DNA of 64,000 bases from Octopus sinensis. Its lineage: Eukaryota. Shown in pieces: positions 4,106 to 40,215 of this stretch. The stretch spans positions 136,834,001 to 136,898,000 of the forward strand of contig NC_042998.1 in NCBI RefSeq assembly GCF_006345805.1, given 5' to 3'. How positions within the stretch are numbered: the first letter of the stretch is position 1; every line of letters begins with the position of its first letter. The notes beneath the pieces are model-generated. The model was not told where the DNA came from, ran no database searches, and saw only the letters and a list, made by a program, of their open reading frames with translations. A program made the translations under genes and the position numbers.

Positions 4106-6349
4106 GATTAAGAGGGGGAAAAGGATGAAAAAAAAAGCGGAGAGATAAAGAAAAATGTTTGTAGGGATTAACGGCTCAACATGACGTTACAGCCAGAAGA
4201 AGACTGAATGAAAGAGAGATAATTACGGTCGAACGAATTCTATTCTCACGCATGTGTGTATGTCAGAAAAGTGTGTGTGAGTGTGTGAATATGTATGTGT
4301 AGGCGAGCAGAAACATAGTAGACCTGAGTGTGTGTGTATATATGTATGTGACACAGTTCGTACATTATGTGAAGTGATGTGCGTTCTGTGTATTTGTGTG
4401 TGTGTATGGACATATGTATACGTGTGAGTGTGAATATGGACATGTGTGTGTGTGAAAACGCATGTGTTTAGTAGTTGATATGTACTTATTCAGGTTGTGT
4501 ATGCACGTGTGTTTGCATGTGTGACCATATAGTGTACATGTGTATAGTGTATGCTTGTGGGCGAAAGTATCTGCCTATGCGTGTTGTATTTGTTAATGCG
4601 TGTTGTGTGTGTTTATGCGTGTCGCGTGTGAGTGTGTACATATTGTCTGTGTTCAGGCATTATATGCTTGTGTGTGTGTGAGATTGTACATGATGATGTG
4701 TGGTATGTATACTGAGTTGAACAGTGTGTAGGGATGCTCGTATAGTGGTTTGTGTGGTGACGCTATTGAAGCGTGTGTGTGTGGGTGTGTGGAAGTGTGG
4801 AAAATGGTGTGTAATGTGTATGCTGAGAAGTGTTGGGTGCTTATGTGTGTGGAGTGAAAAGGTGTTTGTGGGTGTGGGTGTAATGGTGTATGACGCGTGT
4901 AATGAGTTGAACAATATGTATGGGTGCTTTTTTAGTGGTATGTGTATGGTGAGGGTACTGAAGTAGGTGATATGCAGGTGTGTAGGTGAGGGGAGGGACA
5001 GGTGCATGTGGGAAGTGTGAGGAATCTATGTGAGGTGTGTCAGATTAAAAGAAGTTTCAAGTTGAGCTCACAAGTCGCAAACGAACGAAAGAAGATTAAT
5101 TACAGTTCACCACGAAGGCGAGGGTCCAGGTGGCTCCTGTGCAGAGATAGTCTGAACACAAATAGATGTTGTAAAGCGGAAATGACGTGAGACCAGGGTG
5201 TCATTGCTGTGTCTGATTTCTCGGAGGTGCTCCGCGAACCGGCCAGCCAAGCGGCATCCCGATTGACCAATGTACAGGGAAGGACAGACAGAGTAGGAGA
5301 TGCAGTAAATAACGTTACTGGAGGTGCAAGTAAAGGAATCGGTGATGTGATTGGGACAGTGGTGAGTGCCAGTGAGGATAGTGGTGATGGAGAGGTATGG
5401 CAGGTGCGACTGCGTGAGCGAGAACAGAGAAAGGAGCCAGGCTGGGAGGCGGGAGTAGGGAAGAAACCGTGGACCAGGTGGCTACGTAGGTTATGGGCTC
5501 GTTTGAAAGAGGGAAGAGGTGGGTTAGGGAAGATGTGCGAGGTGGAGCGTCAGACTGGAGTTACCGGAAAGCTCGGAGAACTGTGCGTTGGAGGGAAAGG
5601 GTGGAGGGGCAGTAGATGAGGAGAAACGGGAAACGGGTAAGGGTGAGACGGGTTCGAGGAAAAAGAGCAGAGGCATGGTCCACAGATCATGGCCGTTCAA
5701 GGGCAGCGTGGATAATGGTGAGGAGATATCCAAGTAAGGTGAAGTGACGAGCCATGAGTTGAGACTGGGTCTCAAAGTCATGGTCGTCACTGCAGAAACT
5801 GCGTAGACGGAGGAATTGGAAGTAGGGGATGGAGGGCTTAGTGTGGATAGGGTGGGAGGATGAGAAATTAAGGTAGGAGTGTGAGGCTATGTGTTTGTAG
5901 TGAATGAAAGTGTTGACAGCGGAGTGGTGTATGTTGAGAAATTCGACGGAAGAGTTAGAGACAGTGCAGGAGAATTCGAGGGCAGGATGAAAGGATTAGA
6001 CAAAGGAGAGGGAGGAATCAAAATGTTTGCGGGAGAGTGAGGTTGCACCGATACAGTCATCGATAAAACGACCGTGTAGTTCAGGAGTGGGACTAGTGAA
6101 CTGTGAGATTATTTGGGTTTCAACATAACCAACAAACAGGTTCGCATTATTGGGGTCCATTCTCGTTCCCATGGCCACTCCCGAGAATGTTGGTAAAATT
6201 CCTCCACAATCGAGAAGCAGTTGAGGGAAAGGACAAGTTCGGCCGAACGAAGAAGGGTGGAGGTGTTAGGCTGCGGGTCGGGTCGAAGGTCAAGGAAGTG
6301 TTTTAGCGCAAGAAGGCCTTTGTTGTGCAGGATCACCGTGTACACATAT

Positions 6350-18640: not shown

Positions 18641-19162
18641 GATGTATAGTATACATGTACATGTATATATATGTATATATATATTGATGTATATGTAATA
18701 TGTACACGTATATATACATATAAATCTATATACATACATATACATATATAGATGCAACAGTGGGCTTGTGATAAGAAACTTGCTTCCCAACCACATGGTT
18801 CCAGGTTCCAGCTTTCGATTAGTGAAACCTTCAGAGATAGTTGTTTCCAACTCTCTTTTCATTTGAAACACTCTTGATTCCCTCTTTCTTTATATAAAAT
18901 CTTGAGCCACTACCAAAATGTATTCATTATATATAGATTCACACTCAACTACATAAAACATGTCTTATAAAATTGCTGGACATTTAAAACAATTTATGTT
19001 CAGTAATGTTTCAGACAGTAACTTTAGACATTACCATACATATAAATTCTACTTTTCTTTAAAAGCAAACACTTGTAAGAAAATCTGAATCATTATACTT
19101 CAATATGGAAAAAGTGTCTTCTATTATACATACATATATACATATATACATATATATATATA

Positions 19163-20901
19163 TATATTGTATAGAGGGCATTATTACACATAAATGCCTC
19201 ACACTAGGAGGGACAAAGTCATTACTACCAAAATTATAGTAATCATACCCAAATGCAGTTTTTCAAAGCAAGACATTTAAAAAATGAATTTAGTTCTGTA
19301 TCACCGTGATTTCACATTCAACTTACGTCTAATGATCGTCAGCAGAACTGATTCTGAACACATCATAAATAAACTACCAACCTTACGTAGCGAAGACGAA
19401 CAGACAACTGCTCACTCCGGCCAAGCACATGCAATGTTTATAAATCATATATCCGGTAAATGGCGGGCTTTTTACGAACTGCATGTCGGGTAATGAAAAG
19501 TATTTCGGAATAAGTTTAACAATTAAGGATAATCTCTTAATAAGGGATCTTAACAAGAAATTATCGGGTAGCTAGCGTGAAAACCTCATAAAAGAAAAGA
19601 ATTCGAAAATAATTTTTTTCTTTTGAACAAATTAATTATATCTATATTGTATAGAGGGCATTATTACACATAAATGCCTCACACTAGGAGGGACAAAGTC
19701 ATTACTACCAAAATTATACTAATCATACCCAAATGCAGTTTTTCAAAGCAAGACATTTAAAAAATGAATTTAGTTCTGTATCACCGTGATTTCACATTCA
19801 ACTTACGTCTAATGATCGTCAGCAGAACTGATTCTGAACACATCATAAATAAACTACCAACCTTACGTAGCGAAGACGAACAGACAACTGCTCACTCCGG
19901 CCAAGCACATGGAATGTTTATAAATCATATATCCGGTAAATGGCGGGCTTTTTACGAACTGCATGTCGGGTAATGAAAAGTATTTCGGAATAAGTTTAAC
20001 AATAAGGATAATCTCTTAATAAGGGATCTTAACAAGAAATTATCGGGTAGCTAGCGTGAAAACCTCATAAAAGAAAAGAATTCGAAAATAATTTTTTTCT
20101 TTTGAACAAATTAATTATATCTATATTTATAGAGGGCATTATTACACATAAATGCCTCACACTAGGAGGGACAAAGTCATTACTACCAAAATTATACTAA
20201 TCATACCCAAATGCAGTTTTTCAAAGCAAGACATTTAAAAAATGAATTTAGTTCTGTATCACCGTGATTTCACATTCAACTTACGTCTAATGATCGTCAG
20301 CAGAACTGATTCTGAACACATCATAAATAAACTACCAACCTTACGTAGCGAAGACGAACAGACAACTGCTCACTCCGGCCAAGCACATGGAATGTTTATA
20401 AATCATATATCCGGTAAATGGCGGGCTTTTTACGAACTGCATGTCGGGTAATGAAAAGTATTTCGGAATAAGTTTAACAATTAAGGATAATCTCTTAATA
20501 AGGGATCTTAACAAGAAATTATCGGGTAGCTAGCGTGAAAACCTCATAAAAGAAAAGAATTCGAAAATAATTTTTTTCTTTTGAACAAATTAATTATATC
20601 TATATTGTATAGAGGGCATTATTACACATAAATGCCTCACACTAGGAGGGACAAAGTCATTACTACCAAAATTATACTAATCATACCCAAATGCAGTTTT
20701 TCAAAGCAAGACATTTAAAAATGAATTTAGTTCTCTATCACCGTGATTTCACATTCAACTTACGTCTAATATAGATATAATTAATTTGTTCAAAAGAAAA
20801 AAATTATTTTCGAATTCATTTCTTTTATGAGGTTTTCACGCTAGCTACCCGATAATTTCTTGTTAAGATCCCTTATTAAGAGATTATCCTTAATTGTCAA
20901 A

Positions 20902-20906
<5 letters not shown>
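19163..20906. mobile_element. hammerhead-bearing tandem array family 2 (~480-bp unit x3.35 plus inverted ~140-bp tail) in (TA)n
   Basis: Units start at 19163, 19643, 20122 and 20601 (partial to 20770); inverted segment 20768-20906; (TA)n on both flanks. Confidence 0.92.
19292..19349 (-). ncRNA. type I hammerhead ribozyme (copies also at 19772-19829 and 20250-20307)
   Basis: AGUUCUG-CUGACGA-U[CAUUAGAC GUAA GUUGAAUG]U-GAAA-UCACGGUGA-UA-CAGAACU; perfect 7-bp stem I and near-palindromic stem III. Confidence 0.85.
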
Positions 20907-20947
<41 letters not shown>

Positions 20948-20962
20948 ATATATATTATATAT

Positions 20963-20996
<34 letters not shown>

Positions 20997-21177
20997 TAAG
21001 CAATAAGGGTTTAGCAACGAGTTGCCTTACCACATACCGAATTTAGAAATAGCAGTCAAAGGGTTATAGCTATTTCTTCTACTAAAAAGGGAGATCTCAG
21101 TAAAAACAGCATTTGGAAGGCACAAACAGGTAAGAGAGAATGAATTGACTGCAATCTATCATACATTTTTTTAGTTA

Positions 21178-21291
21178 TCCACGGACGTACGTTTCGAAAT
21201 CAAGTTTTAAGGAAAGCATACGAATTAAATATTAAATATTAAATAATAAATAATTCTATCTTACCGAAACTTCTTTTCTCTTCAGCGTAGA
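21178..21291 (-). ncRNA. type I hammerhead ribozyme with 83-nt stem-loop II (copies at 21779-21891, 22378-22490, 22976-23088)
   Basis: UCUACG-CUGAAGA-[GAAA...UUUC]-GAAA-CGUACG-UC-CGUGGA; GUC triplet and palindromic stem III. Confidence 0.85.
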
Positions 21292-23680
21292 ATACTATAA
21301 TCATAAATGATTATATATTGAATTTTGAGATACCAGAAGGCACCAACTCCACTCAGTATCAGAGCGAGCTAGAACCCGCAACTGGTATCACCGAATTCAA
21401 TTTGTGAATGAAACGATTGTGTCAACACCCCTTCCCACCCGCGTGTAGCCAAAACAAGATGCTGTGGTCATCTACTGAGATAAAATATGGTTATCCGTAA
21501 TAATGAAGGGTGAAATTAATTAATTTGGAAAAATTATCAATTACACCAAGTAGTCTTCGGCATGTAAAAGCCTCATTCGAGGAAAATTTAAGTAATACTA
21601 AGCAATAAGGGTTTAGCAACGAGTTGCCTACCACATACCGAATTTAGAAATAGCAGTCAAAGGGTTATAGCTATTTCTTCTACTAAAAAGGGAGATCTCA
21701 GTAAAAACAGCATTTGGAAGGCACAAACAGGTAAGAGAGAATGAATTGACTGCAATCTATCATACATTTTTTTAGTTATCCACGGACGTACGTTTCGAAA
21801 TCAAGTTTTAAGAAAGCATACGAATTAAATATTAAATATTAAATAATAAATAATTCTATCTTACCGAAACTTCTTTTCTCTTCAGCGTAGAATACTATAA
21901 TCATAAATGATTATATATTGATTTTGAGATACCAGAAGGCACCAACTCCACTCAGTATCAGAGCGAGCTAGAACCCGCAACTGGTATCACCGAATTCAAT
22001 TTGTGAATGAAACGATTGTGTCAACAGCCCCTTCCCACCCGCGTGTAGCCAAAACAGATGCTGTGGTCATCTACTGAGATAAAATATGGTTATCCGTAAT
22101 AATGAAGGGTGAAATTAATTAATTTGGAAAAATTATCAATTACACCAAGTAGTCTTCGGCATGTAAAAGCCTCATTCGAGGAAAATTTAAGTAATACTAA
22201 GCAATAAGGGTTTAGCAACGAGTTGCCTTACCACATACCGATTTAGAAATAGCAGTCAAAGGGTTATAGCTATTTCTTCTACTAAAAAGGGAGATCTCAG
22301 TAAAAACAGCATTTGGAAGGCACAAACAGGTAAGAGAGAATGAATTGACTGCAATCTATCATACATTTTTTTAGTTATCCACGGACGTACGTTTCGAAAT
22401 CAAGTTTTAAGGAAAGCATACGAATTAAATATTAAATATAAATAATAAATAATTCTATCTTACCGAAACTTCTTTTCTCTTCAGCGTAGAATACTATAAT
22501 CATAAATGATTATATATTGAATTTTGAGATACCAGAAGGCACCAACTCCACTCAGTATCAGAGCGAGCTAGAACCCGCAACTGGTATCACCGAATTCATT
22601 TGTGAATGAAACGATTGTGTCAACAGCCCCTTCCCACCCGCGTGTAGCCAAAACAAGATGCTGTGGTCATCTACTGAGATAAAATATGGTTATCCGTAAT
22701 AATGAAGGGTGAAATTAATTAATTTGGAAAAATTATCAATTACACCAAGTAGTCTTCGGCATGTAAAAGCCTCATTCGAGGAAAATTTAAGTAATACTAA
22801 GCAATAAGGTTTAGCAACGAGTTGCCTTACCACATACCGAATTTAGAAATAGCAGTCAAAGGTTATAGCTATTTCTTCTATTAAAAGGGAGATCTCAGTA
22901 AAAACAGCATTTGGAAGGCACAAACAGGTAAGAGAGAATGAATTGACTGCAATCTATCATACATTTTTTTAGTTATCCACGGACGTACGTTTCGAAATCA
23001 GTTTTAAGGAAAGCATACGAATTAAATATTAAATATTAAATAATAAATAATTCTATCTTACCGAAACTTCTTTTCTCTTCAGCGTAGAATACTATAATCA
23101 TAAATGATTATATATTGAATTTTGAGATACCAGAAGGCACCAACTCCACTCAGTATCAGAGCGAGCTAGAACCCGCAACTGGTGTCACCGAATTCAATTT
23201 GTGAATGAAACGATTGTGTCAACAGCCCCTTCCCACCCGCTGTTTGTGCCTTCCAAATGCTGTTTTTACTGAGATCTCCCTTTTTAGTAGAAGAAATAGC
23301 TATAACCCTTTGACTGCTATTTCTAAATTCGGTATGTGGTAAGGCAACTCGTTGCTAAACCCTTATTGCTTAGTATTACTTAAATTTTCCTCGAATGAGG
23401 CTTTTACATGCCGAAGACTACTTGGTGTAATTGATAATTTTTCCAAATTAATTAATTTCACCCTTCATTATTACGGATAACCATATTTTATCTCAGTAGA
23501 TGACCACAGCATCTTGTTTTGGCTACACGCGGGTGGGAAGGGGCTGTTGACACAATCGTTTCATTCACAAATTGAATTCGGTGATACCAGTTGCGGGTTC
23601 TAGCTCGCTCTGATACTGAGTGGAGTTGGTGCCTTCTGGTATCTCAAAATTCAATATATAATCATTTATGATTATAGTAT

Positions 23681-23794
23681 TCTACGCTGAAGAGAAAAGA
23701 AGTTTCGGTAAGATAGAATTATTTATTATTTAATATTTAATATTTAATTCGTATGCTTTCCTTAAAACTTGATTTCGAAACGTACGTCCGTGGA
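23681..23794 (+). ncRNA. type I hammerhead ribozyme (inverted arm of family 3)
   Basis: tctacg ctgaaga gaaaagaagttt...aaacttgatttc gaaa cgtacg tc cgtgga read directly on the + strand. Confidence 0.85.
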
Positions 23795-23984
23795 TAACTA
23801 AAAAAATGTATGATAGATTGCAGTCAATTCATTCTCTCTTACCTGTTTGTGCCTTCCAAATGCTGTTTTTACTGAGATCTCCCTTTTTAGTAGAAGAAAT
23901 AGCTATAACCCTTTGACTGCTATTTCTAAATTCGGTATGTGGTAAGGCAACTCGTTGCTAAACCCTTATTGCTTAGTATTACTT

Positions 23985-24030
<46 letters not shown>

Positions 24031-25946
24031 CTCTAGTTTCAGGTCAGAGCTGCGGCCATGCTGATGCACCGCCGTTTTGTGCTACACTGTTATTACGAAG
24101 AACCTTGTCTAATATGTGGCACTTGGTGAAGAATGGAGTTTGATATAGCTACTCTCATTTGCACCTCTTGCCGTGAAGTAGGTTCATCTGGGACTCTCGA
24201 CAGGAAGATGTCCAGCTTTGATTTAAAAACCGCTACATCTACTTTGTGCAAGTTCCTCAGAGTCATTGGGAAAATATTAAAAAGCTGTGGGTCTTTGAAA
24301 CCCAGGCTGTTGCAGAAGCTGGTCCTGAAGCGTGATGGCATTGCTGGGATCTTCGGCACTATGCAGTGTCGTCCCGTTCTAGCATTGGTGTAGCTTACAA
24401 TGTCAAATTTGGCACAATTCCTTCCAGGATCTTCCAGACATATATTACTGCATACCTCTCCCGTCTTCTCTCCAGGGAGTCGAGTCTTAGCTATTTCAAC
24501 CTTTCCCAGTAGCTGAGCTGTTGCAAAGAGACGATCTTCTTTGTGAATCTTCTCTGGATTGCTTCAAAGTCCGCTGTTAATTTTACACTGGTGGGTGACC
24601 ATAGCTATGAGCAGTAATCCAAGCGGCTGAGGACGAATGTCCGCCAGAGGACCATCATGGTTTCCTTATCTCTGGTTCTGAATGTTCTTAGGATCCACCC
24701 AGTCAGTCGTCTGCACTTTGTCGCCATCCTGGTAATGCGCACTTGGAATGAGGTATCATCACTCATGTCGATACCCAGGTCCCTCACAGACTTAGGCTCT
24801 GGGATTGAAATTCCCTGTGGACCGGTGTATCCTGTAAGTTTAATATTCAGTTTTGGATGCTGGTAGCGCAGGGCCTGGAATTTTTCAGCATTAAACTGCA
24901 TATTATTATCCTCCGCCCATCTGTAGATTGAGTCCAACTCCTGCTGCAAGTGTGCAACATCGCTGGGGTTCTGTATTTTCTGCGAGACTTTCGTATCGTC
25001 TGCATAGCTGGCCAGAGTGGCTATCCGGGCAATTGAGGGTATATCTGAGAAGGCCACTATAAAAAGCAGTGGTCCCAAGACAGTGCCCTGTGGAACACCG
25101 CTCACTATTTGTGTGTTCATAGAGGTGGCTCCATTAACCACTACTGCCTGACTCCTATCTTTCAGGAAGTCATGTAGCCACACTCCAAATTTTCCAGCTA
25201 TGCCGAGGTCACGCAGTTTGTGGCATATCATACCATGATCCACCTTGTCAAAAGCTTTTGCAAAATCAAAGTAGATTACGTCCACATTTGATTTGTTGAG
25301 TAACCTCCTCAACACCATGTCATGATGTTGTAAGAGCTGGGTCAGGCAGCTCCTACCTTGTCGAAAACTATGCTGGGTATCACTCAGCAAGTTATTTTCC
25401 TCAAGGAATGCGATTAGTTTCTTTCTGACTATCCGTTCCATGACTTTGCTGATGTGTGAAGTCAGAGAGATAGGCCTATAGTTTTTGGCATCTGCTCTAC
25501 TTCCCCCTTTATGTATTGGGCATATTATTCCCAGCTTGCTTGGTAGTTTGCCATTCGCAAGAAAGCTCTGGAAGAGAATCTTGAGGGGTTTTGCCAGGGC
25601 ATGCTTACACGCTTTGAGGAGGATGGCTGGGAAACCATCTGGACCAACAGCTGAGTTTGTGTCTACTTCATCAATGGCTAGTAGGACATCTTTTTCGCTA
25701 ATGTCAATACATTCTATTGTAACCTCCTCGCTGGTTATAGGTGAGGCGGCAAAGAAGTCCACTGGTTCGTTCACTTATTTGTGTTCCAACGGGGTGGTAA
25801 AGACACTTTTGAACTGGTCATTCAGCATCTCACTGATCTTAGTTGGACTGTCTGTGAGGAAGCCATCCTTTTGAAGGAGGGGTCCTATCTTGTAGTGCAC
25901 TGCGACTGTTTCTTTCGCGTAATGAAAGAAGGCCTTTGGGTTTGAT
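24031..25946 (-). mobile_element. 5'-truncated CR1/L2-group LINE
   Basis: RT ORF 24605-25774; disrupted continuation in ORF 24093-24359 (FKSKLDIFLSRVPDEP); 3' tail at ~24031-24075. Confidence 0.85.
24605..25774 (-). pseudogene. non-LTR reverse transcriptase fragment (389 aa)
   Basis: NYRPISLTS, QHSFRQGRSC, DFAKAFDKV, GVPQGTVLGP, YADD; flanked by stops, start codon not genuine. Confidence 0.9.
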
Positions 25947-25996
25947 TTAATATTTTTTATAACCCTGGCTTATATATATATATATAATATATATAT

Positions 25997-26067
<71 letters not shown>

Positions 26068-26095
26068 CATACATATATATATATATACATCATAC

Positions 26096-26126
<31 letters not shown>

Positions 26127-26144
26127 CATACGTACATACATACA

Positions 26145-26180
<36 letters not shown>

Positions 26181-26198
26181 TATGTATACATATATATA

Positions 26199-26234
<36 letters not shown>

Positions 26235-26279
26235 TGTGTATACATATATATATACATACATACATATATATAGTTGCAG

Positions 26280-26602
26280 GTGTGGCTGGGTGGTAACTTG
26301 GCATGTGTCTTCTGCTATAGCCTCAGACCAACCAAAGCCTTGTGAGTGGATTTGGTAGTTGGAAACCGAAAGAAACCCATGGTATATATATGTATATATG
26401 TCAGTATATGTGTGTATCTTTGTGTTGTGTTTATCCCTCTTCATTTATAGACAACTGCTTGACAAGTGGTGTTGGTTTACTTACATCACCATAACTTAAT
26501 GGTTTGACAAGATACTGATAGAATACGTACCAGGCTTATCAAAATAAAAAAAAACACTGGGGTCGATTCATTCAACAAAAAATTCTTCAAGGCAGTGTCT
26601 CA
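26280..26602 (+). mobile_element. SINE family A (degenerate)
   Basis: Homology to 3270-3672. Confidence 0.75.
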
Positions 26603-26754
26603 TATTTTTGTTTGCCTACTCAATCGTATCTATCAATCTATCTTTCTTTAAATATACAATATATATACATATATACATACACACATACAAATATACATGT
26701 ATATTTTGTGTGAATATATATATACACACATAGATACATACATGTATATATATA

Positions 26755-28675
26755 TATATGTAAAAGTCAATGTCTTTGTGTGTGTTCGTGTGTTACTTAT
26801 AGACTCGACAACTACTGAAATTTGGAACGATCCTAATGAAATTTGGAATGCAAAACCCAAGCCTATGGAGAAGGATAATGCCGTATGTTTCATATAATTA
26901 TGAGGGGGCATAAAGGGGGGGGGCGGAACCCCCCTTGAAAATTTACACGCTTCGAATTTTGATGAAATTTCAACCATAGGTATTAGAAATAAATTAAAAA
27001 ATATACCCAAAATTTCCATTTCTTTGGATGACTCTAAGACCACCTAATGGAGGCTTAACCCTCCCAAATGTTGGTCATTTTTCATGGACCAATATTACCG
27101 AAGGGATCTTTATGATATTTGGAACTTAGATTCAATGCATAAGGGCAGATATAATGCAGTGTTTTGTTTGAATTTGAAGGGGCTTAAAGGTGGCAGAACT
27201 CCCCATGAAAATTCATAAATTTCCGGTTTTGATGGAATTTCAACCATAGGTAAGTGACACAAATCAAGAAGTATTCCCAAAGTTTCCGCATCTCATGAGC
27301 ATTCTAAGACCCCCTAATGAGAGCCTTAACTCCTAAATTTTAGTCATTTTTTATGATCCAGAACAAGGTCAAAAGTACTGAATGGATATTTATGAAATTT
27401 GGAAATTATATTCTATGCATAAGGACAGATGTAATGCAGTATATGTTTTAAAGTGAGGGAGCGCAAAAGAGGCCATAATCCCCATGAAAATTCATATATT
27501 TTTGCTGTTGATGAAATTTTAACCATAAATATTAAACACAAATGAAGTAATATTCCTAAAATTTCAACTTCTTGGGAGTTAGTAAAACCCTCTTAATGGG
27601 GGCTTGACCTCTGCAATTTAGTCATTTTTCCTAAACCAAGACGAATACGCCCGAGTCACCCGAGGATACAAGTTGAGAGTTATTTGTAATTCAATAATAC
27701 AACAGTGTAAGAGTATGCTTTGAGAAATACTTAGATTGTGATTTCTGCAATGTGATTCATAAATTGTCGAGTAAAGGAGAGGCATATTTGCCTCCACTGA
27801 TTCAGTTGCAAAGTGATTTTTGAGTAAAGTTATTTGGTTGTAGACTTCTTCTGAGTCTTTTTATTATCACTGGGTCAGAGATAGTCCCCAGATGGTAACA
27901 TTGATTTTAAGGCCTTTCCAGATAAGTGACTGGTCATTCCAAGACATTTATAGATTGCAAATCTATTCTGTTCAGTTACCTATCGGCATAGTGATCAGTG
28001 GCAAACTCCAGAAGTGACTCTTTCATTTCTCCTTAGCCCTCACGTCACACAGTTTTTAATGTTTATTTGAGTTGGGTCATGCCCTTCCAATTGCTATAGA
28101 TCCGTAATGCATCTTATGGCTGTGCCGGTTACCTGTATGGTTAGGAATCCTACATTAGGAAGTGGTAACGACTAGGTGGAGTAGCTGAATACTTATTGTG
28201 ATCATTCATCTTTTGGTTTCCTCTAGCTTTGCCCTCTTTTACAAACCCAGTGAACATTCATATATTTCCGATTTCAAAGAAATTTGAACAATAAATATGA
28301 CACATGTTAAAAAAGATCCCCAACAATTCACCTTCTCTGCTTTACTTTAAGACCACACCTAATGGTGACCTTAACTCCCACATTCTAGTGCTCCTTGTAC
28401 TCCATGCGCTCCATTTTTCAGGAGCAAAACCTTTGAATACATTTTATTAGATTTGGATTTAGGAATCTGGGCATAAAGACGAGTATTATGGGATAGATAT
28501 GGCATGATTAAAATATTTGTTTGGGTGTGTAAAGAGAGAAAGAACCTTCATTAAAATTCTTAATCTCCAATTTTGCTGAAATTCGAATTATAGGTATTCC
28601 AGTTCATTAGAGATAATGTAAAGGTGTAATTCTTCAATACCATTTGACACTGGCAACGCCGGGTATCTCTGCTCG
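26755..28675 (+). mobile_element. non-autonomous Helitron with three diverged ~270-290-bp internal subrepeats
   Basis: 3' end taattcttcaat..ggcaacgccgggtatctctgCTCG|T matches the Helitron end at 42409-42455. Repeated gaaatttggaa..ttttgatgaaatttcaaccatagg blocks at 26.8-27.64 kb. Confidence 0.65.
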
Positions 28676-29419
28676 TATATATATATATATATATTTGTGT
28701 GTATATGTGTGTGCGTATGCATATATATACATACACATATATATATATGGTAGTGTTTGTGGGGGGGGGGGAGTCTGCATGCGTGTGCTGTTTCTTTGAG
28801 CGTACGTGTGTATGTAGTTTGTATATGTGTAAATACATATTAAATCATTTTATGTATAAAGTAATATATTATTATATGTGTGTATTTTAAAGAGAGATTA
28901 CTATATTTAGCCAATAGTTTCTTCACGCATTCATGTTTATTAACGATTATATAACCACGAAAGTAACTTTTATTGAATATATTTTATTTTACCTCTTTGT
29001 GTACTAACTAAGCGTTAATTACCTCCCATTTATCAATTATCGTTAATTATAACCATATTCCAATTAGTGACAGAATTACTTTGATTTTGCATATTTTCAT
29101 GTTATTTTAAGTCAAGCATATATCTGAAGTTTGTTCACACTGTGCAGTTTCAACACTTTTTCATCAATGTATAATTCCTTCGTAACAGAAGTTTAGAGAC
29201 AACAGCAATTCAGTAACGCGGGCTTGTCATCTATGAGGTCACGAAAGAATTCTGACAAACCAGCTATTTGATTGATGGATTAATCAAACAATTAGTTAAT
29301 TGGCTAATTGGTTGAGTAGTTGTCTAATAATAAACAAGGGAAGCGAAACAGAGACCGTGCTTACGTTTCTTTTGTAGAATACTCTATTCGCAATATGAGG
29401 GTTACATACCACTCTCCTA

Positions 29420-30005
29420 TAAGTTGTGAAACTTGGACTTGTATCGTCGCGACATCAAAATCTCGAACGCTTTCATCAACTGAAACTTCGCTCTCTCTTG
29501 AACATCAAGTGATTTAACTATTTCTCCAGTATCTCCATGACGGAAAGAGCGCCTAGTGAGAGCATCGAATCCCTAATCACCGAGGATCGTCCTCGTTAAG
29601 CTGGCCACGTCACCAGGATGATCGATGAAAGTCATCCTCGTCAAATCTTCAGCGAACTGACAACCGGGAAATGACAAAGAAGTGTCGCTCCTCGACACTA
29701 CAAAGATCAGCTAATGTCAACGTTAAAGCTAACCAGATTCGACCTCTTAGCTGACAAAACATAAACAATAACACAATTTTGTTTCATAGAGAAAGAATAA
29801 AAAATGAGGAAAAGAGATAACGGCAATGGAAGGGTAGAGGGTAGCAGCCATGACCGACTCCGACATTTACATGTGACCATTGCAATCGTGTGTTCTTCAC
29901 GAGAATTAGCCTCGTTAGCCACATTCGCCACCGGCATTAATTGTCCAAATATTCGTCCATGAGGAAAAATCAATCCTCGGATTTGAGGGACTAGCCGACG
30001 ACAAC
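29420..30005 (+). mobile_element. RTE-clade LINE 3' fragment
   Basis: AGHVTRMIDESHPRQIFSELTTGK..HYKDQL and CNRVFFTRISL-like C-terminal remnants. Confidence 0.6.
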
Positions 30006-30499
30006 CCCTAAAAGTCTAGGTAAGTTTTCCATGTAATCACGTCTGCATGTGCATGTATGTATATGTGTGTTTGAATATGTGTACGTGTGTGTATGTGTGT
30101 GTATGTGTGTTTGTTCTTCTCTATTAATATGTCTACGACTGTTCTGGGCATCTGTCCTTCTTTACAAGCTGTCACATCCCCCACACCTTTTCCTCTTGTA
30201 ACGTTTCTCTATTAACAGCGACCTTCACCACTTTGCTCTCATTACACCACCTAACACCAACACTCCCACCTCTATCGTTGCTATCTCCTAACTTAGTGTC
30301 ACCAAATATTCTTCAATGAGCATTCAGAGACTACCACCTATAAATACTTTCCCTACCAAACTGTATACATTCCCACCTTTTCCACCACACCAGCCGTTGG
30401 TGTATCCCTCTAGTCTTTACTCATTATCAATACACATACAAACACACATTCACACACACTCACACACACACTCACACAAGCAAATATACGCATACATAT

Positions 30500-31305
30500 A
30501 TTGGCTGTGTAGTAAGTAGCTTGCTTACCAACCACCTGGTTCCGGGTTCAGTTCCACTGCGTGGTACATTGAGCAAATGTTTTCTGCTATAGCCTCGCGT
30601 CGACCAAAGCCTTGTGAGTAGATTTGGTAGACGAAAACTGAAAGAAGCCCGCCCTTTATATATATAATATGTATATGCATATATATATATATACGTACAT
30701 ATATACACATACTTACATATATATGTATATACATATGCATATATGTGTACAAGACATCATAGAACGTAAACATGAAATACGAAAACGTGGAATACGAACT
30801 TTTTTGCGAACAACGAAATAAATAAATGGAAAACAAGACAAGTAACATTAAGGGCGACCCTTCATCAGTTGTTATCTGTTTATCTACTCCGCATTTCGAG
30901 CAGTTACAAGATGCGCCTTCGTCAAAACAGTTGGTCCCGCATAGCAAATTAAATATAATTTGGGATTTGCGGAGGGTCAAAGTTGGTATTAAAAAGAGGA
31001 GAGTGAAAACAAACAGCAAGGGCTGCTGAGCCATAACGAGGGGAGGTGGCGAATGCTGTGTGTGTGTGTGTGTGTGACTGTCTGTCTGTCTATGTCTATC
31101 TGTGTGTGCATTTGTCCCCCCAGCATGGCTTGGCAACCAATGTTGGTGTGTTTATGTTCTCGTAACTTAGCGGTTCGGCATAAGAGGCCGATAGAATAAG
31201 TACTAGGATTATAAAGAATAAGTCCTGGGGTCGATTTGTTCGACTAAATGTGGTACTCCAGCATGGCCGCAGTCAAATGACTGAAGCAAATAAAAGAATA
31301 AAAGA
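30500..31305 (+). mobile_element. SINE family A interrupted by a dispersed repeat at ~30750-31050
   Basis: Head at 30502-30652; body and tail at 31090-31305. Confidence 0.8.
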
Positions 31306-31929
31306 ATACGCACAAACAAGCAAATATACGCATACACACGAAAATATAGAATTCAGCTTGAAATATGGAAAAACAGTTTTCTTCCAGCGATATTTGTTCT
31401 ATATTGAGTTACACATACTTCCCTACCATACTTAAGTCAGCAATACAGTGAACCAGTAATTACCCACAAGAGTAACCTATAACCTATGACATTTTCTTTT
31501 ATTAAACTGCGGTGAAAAATACCAGCATATCAACAACTTTTCTTGACTAATAAAAAAGTGTTAGATAAATGTCTTCATTATACGTTTTGTAATTTCAGCT
31601 GTTTTGTGACACTAAAACAAGGTAAATATATCGGACAAACTACTTAGCGAAATATCTTCCAGCTCTTCACATTCCAACTTGAAATCTTACCGAGATTCGG
31701 TTTTACTTTTCACCACTTCATCTTTACAGTGTCGATAAAATAAGATACCAACCGAGTACTGGATTCGATGTAATCGACTTGTTCACCTTCAAAGTAGCTG
31801 GCGTTGAACCCTGCAACGGTCCGGCATTCCTCTCAGTGGGGTATGTTGTGATTTCGGTCACTTACACGCACGGAAACCGGATAACCTGCCTTACGAATCC
31901 TAGGTCTCGAAAAATAATAACAATATTTT

Positions 31930-32195
31930 AGAGAGAAGGAAACCAGGAAAGAGAGGAGAGAGAGAGGTGGGTAGAGAGAGGGTGGAAGAGAGAAAGAGAA
32001 AGACAGAGACAGGGAGAGACAGAGAAAGAAAGTGAAAGAGAGAGGGAGAGAGAGGGAAAGAGAGAGTGAGAGAAAGAGAGAGGGAGAGAGGGGGAAATAG
32101 AGAGTGAGAGAAAGAGAGTAAAAGAGAGATAGACAGAGAGAGTGAGTGAAAGAGAGAGAGAGACAGATAGATAGATAGAGAGAGAGAGAGAGTAA
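31930..32195. repeat. degenerate (GA)n tract
   Basis: Directly visible. Confidence 0.9.
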
Positions 32196-32676
32196 GAGGG
32201 ATCAGTTGTGATTGTTTAACCAGAGATGAAACTTGGTTGAGCATATCTCTGGTTGAAGGGGTTTCAATTGCGGTCATACAGGGTTTTTTTACATCATAGG
32301 TTGCATTATTTATTGTGTCCTTCTTTTGTTAGACAGTGGCGTGTGATATGAAGATGTCAGCGTCATTTCTAGGACTTCCAGTGATCACATAAAGGTTACT
32401 TTATTTTCAGGAATATATTTTCGTAAATGAGTGCTGTAAGACAGATATCATTCTGGGGAGAAAACTACTTCACTGCCCTTTTAAAAAATTGTGCTTACTT
32501 GTGTATGGGAACGATTCAATATTTATCTTCTATAATATAATGAGTGAAGAACTGTGAGACTGTGTCCAGTTTATTTTGCCTTACGTTATTAAAAGTCATA
32601 TTACTTTGAAGAAATTGTAAATAAATATTAAAAAATTTTTAAACTGTGAAGTTTATTTGTACATCAAACAAATTAT

Positions 32677-33699
32677 TGTAGAACGACCGTGCGAACGGAG
32701 ATGGTGACGAATGAATGACTCCTTTAAACACTCTACGGTCGCCTTACAATAAAATCTAAAATATGGATAAATGAATAAGTGCCAAAAGGAATAAGAGAAA
32801 AGATTACACAACCGTATAATTTAAGAGAAAGGTTTTATTAGATGTTAGCAGATGGTAGCAAAGTGTTTGTCTGTGTGTTCGTGTCATAAGTACGTATAAG
32901 AGAACAATAAGACAGGCCGTCAATGCATACAATAATGTGTAAGTGCGTACAAACAAGATGTATGCGTGTGAGATAAAATACAGAGCATAGACATGAGTCT
33001 ATCAGGGCTCTAGAAGTAGATCAGACACAAGGTAAAGATAAATACCAGTTAGTAGTAAGATACACAATAGTTAGTTCTGTAACAATGAGGTTGAGGCAAA
33101 AGTGGAGAGCCGGTTACTCTGCGTGTAGAGGCTGTAGCTGCTATCCTGTGCCGGGTTACATGGTACAGAAGGAACTCGCAGGTAGACTGAGCTGTTAACC
33201 TTGGTGAGTATTCACAAACATCGTGAAATTTAACCTGGGCGATGTTGCTGTGTACGTATTGATGAAGACGACGGTGGTGGAGGTAACGGTGGTGAAGGCG
33301 ACGGTGGAGAAAGGTCCTGAAATGCTGCTGGTGCTGATGTCGCGGTCGCTGGAACTGGCTGAGTCGCTGGAACATGGTTGAGTGCTTTGTGATCAGAGGT
33401 TAGTCCTAAGAAGGACTAGAACCAAAGACGAATTACGGTTTGTTGATCTAGCTTTTAAAGAGATTAGTGGACTCCAGAAGAGAACTTAGAAGACTGTCAC
33501 GGGACCTTATCAGAAGGCTGCGATTGGTTGGTTTACACATTGGCGCGAAATTAAGCAAGAGTTAAACTGCACCAAAACCAACCAATCAGAGCAGCGGATA
33601 CAACTGGGCCCAAACAGCCGGTGGCGGGCTGTTATACGCCACGTCCGCATTTGTATTATATCTCTCAAAGAGAGATAATGTATTTCACTAAGCGTTACA
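32677..33699 (-). mobile_element. solo LTR (about 1023 bp)
   Basis: TGTA...TACA termini with a 4-bp TSD TTAT (32673-32676 and 33700-33703). CCAAT boxes at 33523-33527 and 33582-33586; minus-strand TTTAAAA at 33453-33459 and AATAAA at 32834-32839, in U3-R-U5 order. Confidence 0.7.
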
Positions 33700-34330
33700 T
33701 TATAATGCTTAATATTACAACATTCGCTTCTGTTTTAAATGTAAACTTCCGTTTGAATTCAATATGTAAACAAATAGCTTTTTCTTCGCGTTCGTAAAAA
33801 ATGTAATAAAGTGAAAAAAAATACAAAAAAGAATTGAGCAAATTATTTTTAACCATATTACATAATGCAAAAACCAATGATTCCTATCTATAGAATTAAG
33901 TTTTCGAATTGTGTTAGACTGCAGTCATGTTGGGGTACCACCATGAAATTATTTAGTCAATAATATCATCTCCATTACTTATTTTATCGATCTCAGTTGC
34001 AGCACATAAGCGCAAACACACTTACGTAAACAAACGTAAACAGAGGGTAATTTTTTTTTATATTTTGCTGCTCATAGATCATGTTGGGGTACCAAGTTGA
34101 AATTATTTAGTTAATAATATCATCCCCATTAGTTATTCTTCCAGCCTGTTACTTATTTTATCGATGTAAGTTGCAGGACATAAACACAAACACAGATACG
34201 TAAGCAGGATATATTATGTAATTATTAAACTATAAAGGTTATTTCTATATTAGGCATAAATAATATTACTTAATAAAAGATTCGCGTCTGTTTAAAAGTT
34301 TCCATTATTATGACTCTCTCTCTCACTATC

Positions 34331-34401
<71 letters not shown>

Positions 34402-34606
34402 AAGAAGGGTAGTAATATTATTTACTACCAGGTGCCCAGCACAAAAGACGAATTAGTCATAAGACAAAAATATTATTCATATAGAAAAATATTATTCATG
34501 TAGTTATACAATTAAGGGCTCCTAAATTAAGATGCCGAGTGCTGGGAACACAAAAAGGGGATGAATTTATCGAGAGTGAAAATCAAAAACGTTTACCGAT
34601 AACTTT

Positions 34607-34688
34607 AACAACTCGAACCGCGGTTTCTGCTTCTTTCTAGCAAAACACAGAATATGTTTGCTAAGGCTAGCTTCGTCAGCGAGTCGCC
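34607..34688 (-). ncRNA. type I hammerhead ribozyme
   Basis: GGCGACUCG-CUGACGA-[AGCU..UAGCAAACAUA UUC UGUGUUUUGCUA..AGCA]-GAAA-CCGCGG-UU-CGAGUUGUU. Confidence 0.8.
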
Positions 34689-35338
34689 TAAATTGAATCG
34701 AGGTCTGCAGCGATGTGGGACCATGTGTTGATCTCGACTACTAGCAGATCTTAACTTTTCAAATCTCTGCGCAGACGCAAAACTTACACGGCAGTATAGG
34801 GCATGCCGGGAAGAATTTTACGAATAAATCCATCATGTAATATGCGAATATAAACAAGAAGGGTAGTAATATTATTTACTACCAGGTGCCCAGCACAAAA
34901 GACGAATTAGTCATAAGACAAAAATATTATTCATATAGAAAAATATTATTCATGTAGTTATACAATTAAGGGCTCCTAAAACGTTTTTGATTTTCACTCT
35001 CGATAAATTCATCCCCTTTTTGTGTTCCCAGCACTCGGCATCTTAATTTAGGAGCCCTTAATTGTATAACTACATGAATAATATTTTTCTATATGAATAA
35101 TATTTTTGTCTTATGACTAATTCGTCTTTTGTGCTGGGCACCTGGTAGTAAATAATATTACTACCCTTCTTGTTTATATTCGCATATTACATGATGGATT
35201 TATTCGTAAAATTCTTCCCGGCATGCCCTATACTGCCGTGTAAGTTTTGCGTCTGCGCAGAGATTTGAAAAGTTAAGATCTGCTAGTAGTCGAGATCAAC
35301 ACATGGTCCCACATCGCTGCAGACCTCGATTCAATTTA

Positions 35339-35420
35339 GGCGACTCGCTGACGAAGCTAGCCTTAGCAAACATATTCTGTGTTTTGCTAGAAAGAAGCAG
35401 AAACCGCGGTTCGAGTTGTT
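35339..35420 (+). ncRNA. type I hammerhead ribozyme (inverted arm of family 4)
   Basis: Reverse complement of 34607-34688. Confidence 0.8.
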
Positions 35421-35514
35421 AAAGTTATCGGTAAACGTTTTTGATTTTCACTCTCGATAAATTCATCCCCTTTTTGTGTTCCCAGCACTCGGCATCTTAA
35501 TTTAGGAGCCCTTA

Positions 35515-35583
<69 letters not shown>

Positions 35584-35593
35584 TTATAGAAGG

Positions 35594-35644
35594 AGCTTCT
35601 ACAGGACTAGAACTGTTTCATTCAGATGAAATCATCAGGAAGCT
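35594..35644 (-). ncRNA. type I hammerhead ribozyme
   Basis: AGCUUC-CUGAUGA-UUUCAUCUGAAU-GAAA-CAG uucuaguc CUG-UA-GAAGCU. Confidence 0.85.
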
Positions 35645-35681
35645 GGCTGTCAAAAAAAACTTGTTTTTTTTTTTGACAGCC

Positions 35682-35732
35682 AGCTTCCTGAAGATTTCAT
35701 CTGAATGAAACAGTTCTAGTCCTGTAGAAGCT
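35682..35732 (+). ncRNA. type I hammerhead ribozyme
   Basis: agcttc ctgaaga tttcatctgaat gaaa cag ttctagtc ctg ta gaagct. Confidence 0.85.
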
Positions 35733-35814
35733 CCTTCTATAAAATAAATTACTTTACTCTGCTATTTATTGAGTACCTTATTTACTGTGGTTAATCCCGA
35801 CTCAACCCGGGACC

Positions 35815-35898
<84 letters not shown>

Positions 35899-35899
35899 G

Positions 35900-38800
35900 C
35901 GAGACTGTGGCAAAGTCAACATGGCATGCCGAAAACATTTCTCTTCTAAATCTCAACGTTTGGCGGCAGATGCACAACCACGAAAAGAGGGGAGAGTAAT
36001 TCAGTTCAACAATAATCGCTCTAAAACATCTCAGCAAATACCTGCAAATGTAATTTACTTACCACATCAACAACAACTAACAAATATAACAAATATAACA
36101 AATGTTCAGAGAAAAATTAACAGGTCTATTGAAGGTCTGGCAAAGAATCTTACTGATGAACCTTTCCAGGAACATAATGTTCTTCATACAATGCCACAAC
36201 ATAACATAGAAAGTCTTTTTTCATCTGTTTGTCCGTACTGCAAAGCTTCATGAACCCAAAACTCTCTCTGCTGTTTCTAGGGAAAAGTGAAACACTCAAT
36301 TACCTCCTCCTCCATCAAATATGCTGAAATATTTCGGTATCACTCGAGCAGGAAATTCTTTTCTCAGTAATATACGTGCATATAATAATGTGCTTACCTT
36401 AGCTTCCCATGGTTGCAAAGAGATTAGAGCACCAGGATTTAGTGTCACATTTAAGATCCAAGGCATGGTTTATCATATTATCGGATTACTATTTCCAAGC
36501 GATGCTTCACTCAAGTTTGCACAGCTCTACTTCTATGGTACAGATAATGAGCTTCAGAATCGCTTGAGGCGCATTCTAATTTGGATGTTGTCATCTTTCA
36601 GAACCTGCAAGAAGATTTGCACTATTACAGCTCATACATAAGAAGCTTCAAAGCAGTCATTGAATTATCAAACCCCGAAAATGTGAATATTGTTTTACAT
36701 GCTGAAAAGAAGGTAAAACCCATTGATTTTCATGGTCGCACATACAGACTTCCCATGGCATACGAGATTGCTGTTATTGAACCTGATACAACATTAGGTC
36801 TCTTGGATATCATTATTCATAAAAGAGATGGTGGTCTTCAGAGGATTCATCGGTTGCACCGTTCTTATGCATTATGTGTTACTGTTTCATTGGAGGAATG
36901 ATGTTTCAGGTTGACAACAACCACACTCACCCATTTATTTCTACTGTTATCGATTATAGGTGAGACAAGGTGGCTCTAACATTATCATGAAGAGAAGGCG
37001 ACTCATGCAGCAATATGCTGTAGATGTCCAGGCAAAAATAGAACATTGTCGCCTTACTTGGGCTCAAAATAATCAAACCCTGATACAAGCTGAGAAGTAT
37101 AAAGGTTTTTATGATGTTGTGGCTGAAGGAGATTCAGCAAATGCAGGCCGGAAAATTGTTTTTCAACCTTCAATCTATGGTTCCCTTCGCTTCTATGATG
37201 AGTGCTTCCAAAACTCAATGACTGTAGTTTAATATATGGGAAAGCCATCTTATTTCATTACAGTGATAACCAATCCTAAATGGCATGAAATTATAAAAAT
37301 AGTCTGTACCCCGGTAAACTATGGACTGTCCTGATATATGTGCAAGAGTATTCAAGATCAAGTATGACAGCTTCATGGATGATATACTAAAACAAAATAT
37401 CTCATTCTGCCACAGTAGAGTGGCAGAAACGAGGCCTCGTTCATGCTCATATTCTGCTGTTAATGAGTGAAGATAGCAAGCCCAAGACTGCAAATGCTAT
37501 TATTTAGGTAGTTTACTGTGAAATTCCTTTTAAAGTGACTAATTCAATTCTTCATAAGATCATCACATCCTGCAACATTCATGGCCTATGTGGACAAGCT
37601 AGTATAATGTCTTCGTGTATGGAAGGGCTAGGACAACACCATTGCTTTAAAGGTTATCCTAAGGCATTCAGGCAAGCCACATTTGTTGCCAAAATTTCCT
37701 TTCCTGAATATAGGAGGAGGGATAGACAGTATGGGGTCATACCCATACAATCCAACTTGAGGTCAAGAATTCAACGTTGATAATCAGTGGATTGCTCCAT
37801 ACAACCCTTTCCTGTCATTGAGATATTAATGCCACATCAGTTGTCAAGGCTGTTAAGTATTTATAAAAATACACCCGGAAAGGATCAGACAAGATCATTT
37901 TCACTATTAAGGATGATCAAGATAACTGTGTCCATGCCAAAAATGAGATTGAAACATATATTATGCACGGTACATCTCAGCCAGTGAAGCATTCTGGGAA
38001 ACTTATAACTTTCCGTTTCATCATCGCAAATCTCCAGTTGAGAAGCTGCCTTGCCATTTACCTGGCAAACAAATGGTAGCATACCAGCAGGTACAAGAGG
38101 AAAGTGTTGTTTCTAGGGGACAGCCAGTGACTAAGCTGACTGAATATTTTCAGCTGAATATTAGAGGTCCACTGGCAAAAACAAAAACATTGTATATTAA
38201 TATACCAAAATCAACTTGCACTTTCACTTAGACAAACAAAAAGTAGCAAAGACGAAAAAAAGGGCATCTGGATGGTGATGAACAATTTATGGGTGAATCT
38301 CTTGGACGCATTCCAACAATATCTCTCAGTAGACATCAGTGTTTGACTTGTATTACCTAAGAATGATCTTACATCATAAGGCTGGGTCAACTTCATACAA
38401 AGATTTGAGGGCAATTGATGTAATTGATTTTCCAATATTCCAAGAGGCATGCGGGAAGCTTGGTCTGTTGGATGAAGATGGACATAAAGACAAAGCTATG
38501 GAAGAGGCCTCATCTATTACATTTGGACATCAGCTGAGAGAGATCTTCTCCACCATCTTATTGTACTGCATGACAAATGATCCTCTGCAATTATGGGAGA
38601 AATGGAAGAATTGTCTTGCTGAGGATATCATGCATGAACATCATGAGCAAATCATGTCAGAGTAAAGCGTGCAGACTGTTCTACAGAAGATCCACCAAAG
38701 ACTTCAACATGAGGGCTTGGGCATCCGTGTAAAATATGGACTTCCTCGACCAGACCCAACTATCGTTACCACACCAGCACTCAGTATGGTTCTTATGGGA

Positions 38801-40215
38801 GAAACAGATTTCAATACAGAACTGCAAGCAAACATAAATGAAGTTTTGCCAACATTGCATCCTGAGCAACTGGTTGTTTTCCACGAAGTCGTCACCTCAG
38901 TAAATGAAAATTAAGGTAAATTTTTTGTTTGAATGCAAGTGCAGGTACAGGAAAATCTTACATCGTCAACATCATACTGGATTACATTCGATCTCAAAAA
39001 CATATTGCACTTGCAACCGTCATATCTCGAATAGCAGCCACTTCACAGAGGTAGAACTCATAATTCCAAATGCAAGATTCCTATCAATGTAATTGCTGTA
39101 TCAACTTGCACCTTCACAAAGAAGGATGCCACAGGTGAACTAATGCAGCAAGCTGACTTGCAAATTATTGATGAGATAAGTATGGGGCATAAACATATCT
39201 TCGAATACCTTGACAGGAGCTTGCAAGATGTTCGAGATTGCAAAGAGACATTTGGTGGTCTAACAGTATTACTATCTGGTGACTGGAAGCAAATTCTTCC
39301 CGCTGTGCGTCATGGTGCTAGACCACAAATAGTTGAGGCAATTATCAAGACATCTTATCTATGGTACTACGTGGAAACCCTGGAGATGACAACCAACCAA
39401 TGTTTAAATAATGCACGGGAATAGGATGAAAGAGTTCTCAAACTACCTTCTTGATATTGGAAACGGTAACACTCTGACACTACCAACTTTAGGTGCGTTC
39501 ACAATTCCTCTGCCAAATGAACTTTGTCTGGAATATGGTGATATCTGAACTGAGCTTTTTTGTATATACAAATCTTCAAGGAAACTACTCAAACCCACTA
39601 TGGCTTGCAAATAGAACTGTTATCACTCGAACAAATGGTGAATTAATTCATGTCCAACAAGTCCCCTTGTCATGAAAGAGTCTATAATACCTCTGACACA
39701 GTAGATAATGAACTGCAATATCTACTCGAGTTCATCAACAAACTTACACCATCAGGCTTCCCAACACACATTCTTAAACTGAAGAAAGGCATTTGCATCA
39801 TGCTTCTGGGAAATCTGGACCCTTTAAACGGTCATTCCAATGGTACGCGCTATATCATCATCAACTTACATAATCATGTGATTGAAGCTGAAGTAGCTTT
39901 GGGGCCCAATGCTGGAACCGGCTGCTTATCCCACGGTTACCTCAAATATCTCAAAGAGCTTGATTTCTCTTTCGCCTTTATGCGCGAGCAATTTCCTGCC
40001 AAACCTGCCTTTGCCCTTACATGCAACAAAGCACCAGGTCAGACACTTGAAAAGATAAGTGTATATCTACCAACACAATTCTTCGCACATGGTCAGATGT
40101 ATTTTGCATTATCAAGAGCGTAAAGAAAAGAAAATATAAAAATATTAACCCGGATAAATGAAAAGGGTCCATTTGCTGGCGATTGTATCTACAAAGAAAT
40201 TCTACAGTGATGTGA
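35900..40215 (+). mobile_element. decayed autonomous Helitron (Rep-helicase pseudogene)
   Basis: Rep motifs YFITVITNPKW (~37251), VEWQKRGLVHAHIL (~37415), VKYL*KYTRKG (~37852). Helicase motifs IIDEISM, GDWKQILP, NGTR, TCNKAPGQTL, HGQMYFALSR. Many stops and frameshifts. Confidence 0.9.

Follow-up and report, generated by a model that had tools for sequence, protein, structure and literature searches.

A dispersed 603-bp non-coding repeat with long-armed type I hammerhead motifs and a Penelope-like insertion signature

The array at positions 20993-23989 of the window (the whole 64,000-nucleotide stretch of DNA that was analysed) is a head-to-head element, with arms that meet at 23240 and (TA)n at both ends (Table 1). 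The 5' end of the main arm lies at unit position 344, and its 3' end is found 191 nt past the last cut site, where it runs into (TA)n. The inverted arm starts at unit position 55 and also runs into (TA)n, 201 nt past its cut site. The initial annotation described a 600-bp array with five hammerheads. The five cores are indeed present, but the array is not a plain tandem, since 3.73 units are on the minus and 1.24 units on the plus strand. The 83-nt stretch given for stem II (23694-23776) belongs to the plus-strand copy, whereas the cut quoted alongside it is on the minus strand.

At cleaner loci the unit is 603 bp long, and the spacing of 598-601 bp in the window is the result of 1-nt indels, which are likely homopolymer sequencing errors. 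The three full units of the window have 0, 0 and 1 substitutions and the dispersed copies are near-identical, in agreement with the earlier suggestion of a very recent insertion. An assembly artefact can be ruled out as the source of the inverted arms, because at 20 loci their fixed 3' ends differ and the flanking sequences are distinct.

Table 1. Features of the hammerhead array, in window positions; all cut sites are predicted.
Feature	Position	Strand	Remarks
(TA)n target tract, left flank	20904..20995	.	common to the neighbouring 480-bp hammerhead repeat
Main arm	20993..23240	-	3.73 tandem units, ribozyme sense on minus strand
Type I hammerhead	21178..21291	-	CUGA 21285; stem II 83 nt; predicted cut 21184/21183, C17 = 21184
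7-nt AU repeat (4.1 copies), stem II tip	21224..21252	-	source of length variation
Type I hammerhead	21779..21891	-	CUGA 21885; stem II 82 nt; predicted cut 3' of C17 21785
Type I hammerhead	22378..22490	-	CUGA 22484; stem II 82 nt; predicted cut 3' of C17 22384
Type I hammerhead	22976..23088	-	CUGA 23082; stem II 82 nt; predicted cut 3' of C17 22982
7-nt AU repeat, further stem II tips	21824-21852, 23021-23049, 23720-23748		tip repeat
Inverted arm	23240..23989	+	1.24 units, head to head with main arm
Type I hammerhead	23681..23794	+	CUGAAGA 23687-23693; stem II 23694-23776, 83 nt; predicted cut after 23788
(TA)n target tract, right flank	23989..24027	.	LINE fragment next

A second hammerhead repeat with a 480-bp unit occupies 19157-20906, in 3.4 copies plus a short inverted arm; its hammerheads have a stem II of 22 nt and CUGA at 20300, 19822 and 19342 on the minus strand. 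A LINE-type reverse transcriptase (RT) fragment (PF00078) at 24028-25774 on the minus strand ends on the right (TA)n flank, so that a single (TA)n hotspot carries three insertions, namely the 480-bp repeat, the 603-bp array and the LINE. Further away, a palindromic insertion at 1940-2959 contains a type I hammerhead (CUGA 2080, minus strand) whose stem II has 55 nt, and a 54-nt relative is present in locus L059. Inverted (TA)n insertions are found at 34394-35559 (stem II 45 nt; CUGA 35348 plus, 34679 minus) and at 35579-35747 (12-nt stem II and long stem III; 35688 plus, 35638 minus). The window also contains PIF1 helicase pieces, likely of a Helitron (39647-42268), and a C2H2 zinc-finger frame (44578-45090).

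A scan that permits a long stem II identifies five type I cores of the form CUGAAGA...GAAA-CGUACG-UC in the array. In each of them stem I is 6 bp long, the base of stem II is GAAA/UUUC and ACGUACGU-C is present, and the CUGANGA, GAAA and NUH elements of the hammerhead core are present as CUGAAGA, GAAA and GUC in 5/5 copies. The motif is not expected by chance: none of 3,000 dinucleotide-shuffled units match the scan, and 30 shuffled windows give 0 matches, compared to 12 in the real window. Stem II was previously taken to span 83 nt in all five hammerheads, which is correct for two of them, while the other three have 82 nt; the stretch at 23694-23776 is 79.5% AU. The predicted cut between 21184 and 21183 on the minus strand was placed correctly, with C17 at 21184, ACGUACGU is self-complementary as stated for stem III, and the GAAA/UUUC, AAGUUU/AAACUU and GAAUUA/UAAUUC helices all recur in the predicted fold.

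The energies and probabilities of the folds are equilibrium predictions throughout. Folding of the minus-strand unit had been proposed as a check: for a single motif, stems I and II are predicted with a probability of 0.88-0.99, but stem III reaches only 0.04. Helices I, II (G10.1-C11.1) and III have 6, 4 and 2 bp, with helix I open, a fold constrained to a single hammerhead is less stable by 1.1 kcal/mol, and the hairpin region has a z-score of -2.06. All four two-unit stretches have the double hammerhead as their minimum-energy fold, which is 6.6-8.3 kcal/mol more stable than a pair of single hammerheads, and the 8-bp common stem III has a predicted probability of 0.8-1.0. Dimeric cleavage, as put forward in the initial annotation, is thus favoured by the predicted fold, although this applies to the four minus-strand copies only. 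Invertebrate hammerheads usually have a stem III of 2 bp closed by a tetraloop, and such ribozymes, those of coral and mussel among them, are reported to cut also as monomers (PMC7229834). When transcription reads through the entire array of the window, one of the four hammerheads is predicted to be lost to the inverted arm in a long double-stranded RNA. Dimeric PLE (Penelope-like element) hammerheads were reportedly the subject of a 2017 paper. A palindromic stem III is remarked upon in PMC3088659, and in a preprint on Xenopus retrozymes 8/9 dimers are described as failing to cut in vitro (10.64898/2026.07.22.740005). The Anolis PLE hammerhead is described as requiring protein for cutting and as dispensable for insertion (PMC11167929).

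Stem I pairing is retained across U-G/U-A/C-G and U-A/C-G changes. In a covariation table of 10 related rows, 97.7% of the cells are paired, which is matched by 5/500 shuffles; the covariation is thin, with one pair changed on both sides, a value that 186/500 shuffles of the same rows reach. With regard to a possible tertiary contact between loops 1 and 2, 2x2 internal loops are located at the canonical 6-bp and 4-bp registers in all subfamilies, with variable letters. Taken together, the core, the helices, the chance control and the stem I covariation support the assignment of the window motifs as putative hammerheads.

The element belongs to a large dispersed family. Scoring of 40 out of 1,120 candidates in the 2.72-Gb animal genome gave 41 near-identical matches, and a 27-nt core stretch has 1,169 exact genome copies, a count that takes in the 76- and 83-nt subfamilies, compared to 0 for the reversed control. 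The core of a sister subfamily has 252 exact copies. On contig C1 there are 91 core copies in 26 clusters, which extrapolates to about 330 loci genome-wide, and arrays comprise up to 13 units. The 603-bp unit has a GC content of 34.8%, which agrees with the limit of less than 45-50% for retrozymes, and contains no ORF, with a stop-free run of at most 51 codons. Retrozymes are also expected to have two or more units in a row that carry a type I hammerhead; here there are four consecutive minus-strand units of this kind.

Insertion ends were examined in 38 stretches, 19 chosen by similarity (window included) and 19 taken from the first listed exact matches; the latter are on contigs C1 and C2 and are enriched for single copies. 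Two arms that run off their stretch were left out of the end counts. The resolved 3' ends (n=58) fall into two fixed classes about 100 nt apart, with 36 located 188-201 nt and 20 located 286-306 nt past the cut, and 2 elsewhere. All but one (57/58) abut a TA-rich repeat (score of at least 0.6). The 59 resolved 5' ends are scattered over unit positions 15-582, and 0/59 coincide with the cut. Among the 20 head-to-head insertions, both ends are resolved in 19, and 16 of these have one end of each 3' class. The window array is an exception to this rule, because both of its ends are in the 191-201 class (191, 201). The sister subfamily has the identical pair of 3' end classes.

PLE insertions have been described as truncated at the 5' end and partly in tandem, with an inverted copy, a one-sided tail of 30-40 bp and a bias for (TA)n (Craig et al., PMC8557442). 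With a purified PLE protein, the tail was tied to two internal RT start sites, and both target strands were cut and extended (Frangieh et al. 2024, PMC11167929). The 603-bp family exhibits all parts of this signature: its insertions are truncated at the 5' end, include partial tandems and an inverted copy, have a tail of about 100 nt on one side and lie in a microsatellite target. In the fetched stretches, neither the unit nor the sequence contiguous with it upstream contains the ORF for RT and GIY-YIG domains that defines an autonomous PLE. An element with the PLE signature and no ORF is therefore classed as a non-LTR retrozyme, and we regard this assignment as very likely. The class of element is known.

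The tandem organisation and the adjacent blocks of common variants could also be accounted for by a DNA-level satellite that spreads by unequal crossing-over and carries a dead, hammerhead-like relic. This explanation is largely refuted by the structure of the family, whose arrays number in the hundreds, are short and dispersed, contain inversions, lie in (TA)n and have their 3' ends at fixed sites but their 5' ends at random ones, and by the conservation of the core between subfamilies that are 17-18% apart.

The distribution of variants within arrays bears on the template. Substitutions private to a locus are often present in every unit and in both arms, as in 6/6 (L017), 5/5 (L025), 3/3, 10/10 (L147) and 4/4 (L149). 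Among the 12 recurrent substitutions in the similarity-chosen stretches, 8 are fixed in the array, 3 occur in some units and 1 is scattered. The partly shared variants (in 5/8 units, in 2/5 units, and in L021) are in adjacent blocks. Since they occur in only some units, a single monomer circle is insufficient for them, and mixed templates or later duplication are needed. Together with the length of the arrays (10-13 units), the exactness of the cut junctions and the absence of 5' ends at the cut, the private variants in all units make the repeated copying of one circular monomer the simplest reading.

In the mechanism that we propose, multi-unit transcripts would likely be cut into monomers by the hammerheads. 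The ACGUACGU palindromes of neighbouring hammerheads are predicted to pair with each other as an 8-bp stem III, with cleavage after GUC, and the monomer would then be ligated into an RNA circle. A borrowed PLE protein with RT and GIY-YIG domains would nick (TA)n, and the RT would start internally, either about 191-201 nt or about 286-306 nt past the cut. By travelling around the circle it would produce tandem copies until it stops at random, and priming from both target strands would give rise to head-to-head arms. We consider it probable, at roughly 0.7, that the element is a non-coding 603-bp retrozyme with the PLE signature that is cut, circularised and copied into (TA)n by a borrowed enzyme. 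For the mechanism as a whole, including the circle and dimeric cutting, the odds appear only slightly better than even.

A non-autonomous element mobilised by PLEs could also dispense with both the circle and dimeric cutting. The hammerhead would then cut as a monomer, only with protein help, or barely, and arrays would arise when the RT jumps from one linear monomer to another or copies uncut multimers. Such a course of events would fit the adjacent blocks of partly shared variants, the dispensability of the PLE hammerhead in vitro together with the lack of reads ending at the cut in the data reported for it (PMC11167929), and the monomeric cutting described for invertebrate ribozymes with a 2-bp stem III (PMC7229834). 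However, the copying of linear multimers should not by itself be able to rebuild arrays of 10-13 units with a private variant throughout, and the 1,169 copies have an exact junction at the cut site, with 0/59 5' ends at the cut. We therefore judge copying without a circle to be rather improbable.

The genome contains potential partners for copying from a circle by a borrowed enzyme. Intact ORFs with RT and GIY-YIG domains encode 775-781 aa and have a cysteine linker, which we take to be of the Neptune type. The 3' ends of these PLEs are also on (TA)n, and one family has a 35-nt tail. The search for GIY-YIG proteins scored 150/5,029 candidates, and no sequence common to the unit and the PLEs was found in 50 PLE loci (40, and 10 of a further family; five families in total). 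In the fetched stretches, no PLE protein match is contiguous upstream of the family arms. Because of the lack of homology in the 50 loci and of a PLE protein upstream, mobilisation is presumed to take place in trans. The only unit matches at PLE loci, in L098 and L124, are separate adjacent insertions, and the PLE fragments beside L088, L098, L111 and L148 were likewise rejected as partners, being separate insertions.

It is also conceivable that an autonomous PLE yet to be found has the unit as its pseudo-LTR, and that the arrays are truncated copies of this PLE. The ends and targets are of the PLE type, the retrozymes of Xenopus are described as related to pLTRs (10.64898/2026.07.22.740005), and the scored GIY-YIG candidates are a small part of the 5,029. 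Against this, the sequence upstream of units in the fetched stretches belongs to a further unit, to an inverted arm or to (TA)n, never to a contiguous PLE protein match, and the five PLE families have no sequence in common with the unit. We consider a pseudo-LTR origin very unlikely.

Several observations concern PLEs and related repeats more generally. A young intact PLE family (L053-L056, L098) has an upstream ORF of 479 aa that overlaps the 781-aa RT-GIY-YIG ORF, and by eye its 3' end has the look of a minimal hammerhead with a U3-A8 core. A degraded, C-rich PLE fragment is located in the window at 5100-6300 on the minus strand. A third family (L023:1438-1800; L099-L123; 3,330 candidates) carries a different hammerhead with a 33-nt stem II and resembles unit positions 97-287 at about 70% identity, in the region with both 3' end sites. 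Positions 97-287 are a candidate enzyme-recognition region.

With respect to transcription, a check for a pol III or tRNA-derived promoter detected no tRNA and no strict B box; a T4-free stretch was noted in the course of it. For the contigs of four runs, a kind of data that shows neither RNA ends nor circles, no accumulation of starts or ends was listed. Genomic copies have no clear A-to-G bias among them. In contigs of runs X1 and X2, there is a plus-strand A-to-G excess over window positions 20996-21590, with 24 and 20 places, compared to at most 6 for other kinds of change. One run contig has 54 differences, and X3 and X9 are without excess. The excess in X1 and X2 fits, as expected, the editing of double-stranded RNA from inverted arrays, if these runs are RNA, as we guess; alleles could give the same picture.

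Helix II consists of the canonical 4-bp base, a 2x2 internal loop and an AU-rich hairpin, and helix I (6 bp) is also followed by a 2x2 internal loop. The canonical lengths are 6 bp for helix I and 4 bp for helix II (Cervera and de la Pena, PMC4209133). Stem II spans of 58-61 (in the sister subfamily), 73-76, 80-84 and 90 nt occur, corresponding to variants of 60, 76, 83 and 90 nt, and the differences are confined to the tip, where they come in steps of the 7-nt AU repeat. In the position-chosen sample, 47/60 motifs are of the 76-type and 13/60 of the 83-type. A midpoint-rooted tree of 56 copies, calculated without the tip, has the 83-type nested inside the 76-type; only the change from 76 to 83 nt has a direction, because the tree is without support values or outgroup. 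Mean differences within classes are 1.9% (83), 4.6% (76) and 5.3% (60), and those to the sister subfamily 17-18%. Contigs of runs X1-X3 have the form that is shorter by 7 nt. Long arms are common in this genome: among the hammerhead groups counted by eye in 935 kb, 12/18 have a span of more than 25 nt, in a sample that consists of fetched, not random, sequence and gives 0 matches in three shuffles. The 83-nt arm is therefore the long end of a continuum. It is likely that the tip of stem II grows neutrally by slippage.

Rfam finds no match in the whole window at gathering scores, and there is no hammerhead family among the 111 matches to 18900-36000 with E up to 10. The published minimal descriptor, which according to its supplement permits 3-7 bp in stem II and 3-10 nt in loop 2, would miss the long-arm motif, as would the spacer of 7-17 nt used by Craig et al. 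(PMC8557442). The initial annotation expected that searches limited to a short stem II would overlook the motif, which holds for Rfam and for the minimal descriptor. However, arm length is not the only cause of the Rfam result, because hammerheads of the window with a stem II of 12, 22 and 45 nt were also missed. Library and descriptor searches thus undercount type I hammerheads. In the literature searched, which left out most subscription papers, no description of a type I hammerhead with such an arm in animal repeats was found. The 'long helix II' of PMC13725137 has 6-8 bp, ribozymes are unmentioned in the available part of the octopus repeat annotation (PMC13282606), and 235 Rfam hammerheads are reported for a squid genome (PMC6962438).

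If the predicted motifs are correct, type I hammerheads tolerate a helix II of 60-90 nt in a recently active family, and the natural 60-, 76-, 83- and 90-nt variants are a ready series for cleavage kinetics. The hundreds of young insertions offer a way to test whether circles are the templates of animal retrozymes, and the same loci to test how PLE enzymes build inverted arrays with a tail at one end. A more far-reaching interpretation, which we consider doubtful, is that the genome holds a radiation of retrozymes with long and growing hammerhead arms, invisible to standard screens, so that published counts for such animals would be far too low. The arm would then be a functional platform or brake and not the product of neutral slippage, and the arrays would record a dimeric Penelope enzyme that primes both target strands on one RNA circle, with a different start site per strand.

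Among known systems, the element is most readily compared with the non-LTR retrozymes of metazoans (Cervera and de la Pena 2020, PMC7229834; Li et al. 2026, 10.64898/2026.07.22.740005). As described there, these are non-coding, low-GC tandems with a type I hammerhead per unit, a helix I of 6 bp, a helix II base of 4 bp and a 2-bp helix III with a palindromic tetraloop, and they co-occur with PLEs. The unit of 603 bp exceeds the 150-450 bp of PMC7229834, but is inside the range of 51-972 bp in the preprint. Unlike in these retrozymes, a 60-90-nt helix II hairpin replaces the short loop, the arms are head to head, there are two fixed 3' ends, and no pLTR homologue was found among 50 PLE loci. 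For Xenopus, 24/57 retrozyme families are reported as related to a PLE pLTR, and 21 matches to PLEs are listed (10.64898/2026.07.22.740005).

With Neptune-type endonuclease-bearing PLEs, as reported in PMC8557442 and PMC11167929, the element shares the 5' truncation, the partial tandems, the inverted 5'-truncated copy, the tail, the (TA)n target and a sense hammerhead 100-300 nt from the 3' end. It differs from them in the absence of an RT/GIY-YIG ORF, in a tail of about 100 nt instead of 30-40 nt, and in a full instead of a minimal hammerhead. The double hammerheads of newt and axolotl satellite 2 (PMC7229834, PMC6155905) are similar in that a weak palindromic helix III is predicted to need a second copy. 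However, helix III has 2 bp here and 1 bp there, helix II is long, and the arrays are short, dispersed and in (TA)n. Finally, the discontinuous Clec2 hammerhead (PMC6155905) is likewise hidden from compact searches by a large insertion in one helix. In Clec2 the hammerhead is of type III, the insertion is in helix I and the location is a single-copy 3' UTR, whereas here a type I hammerhead carries the insertion in helix II and belongs to a mobile family.
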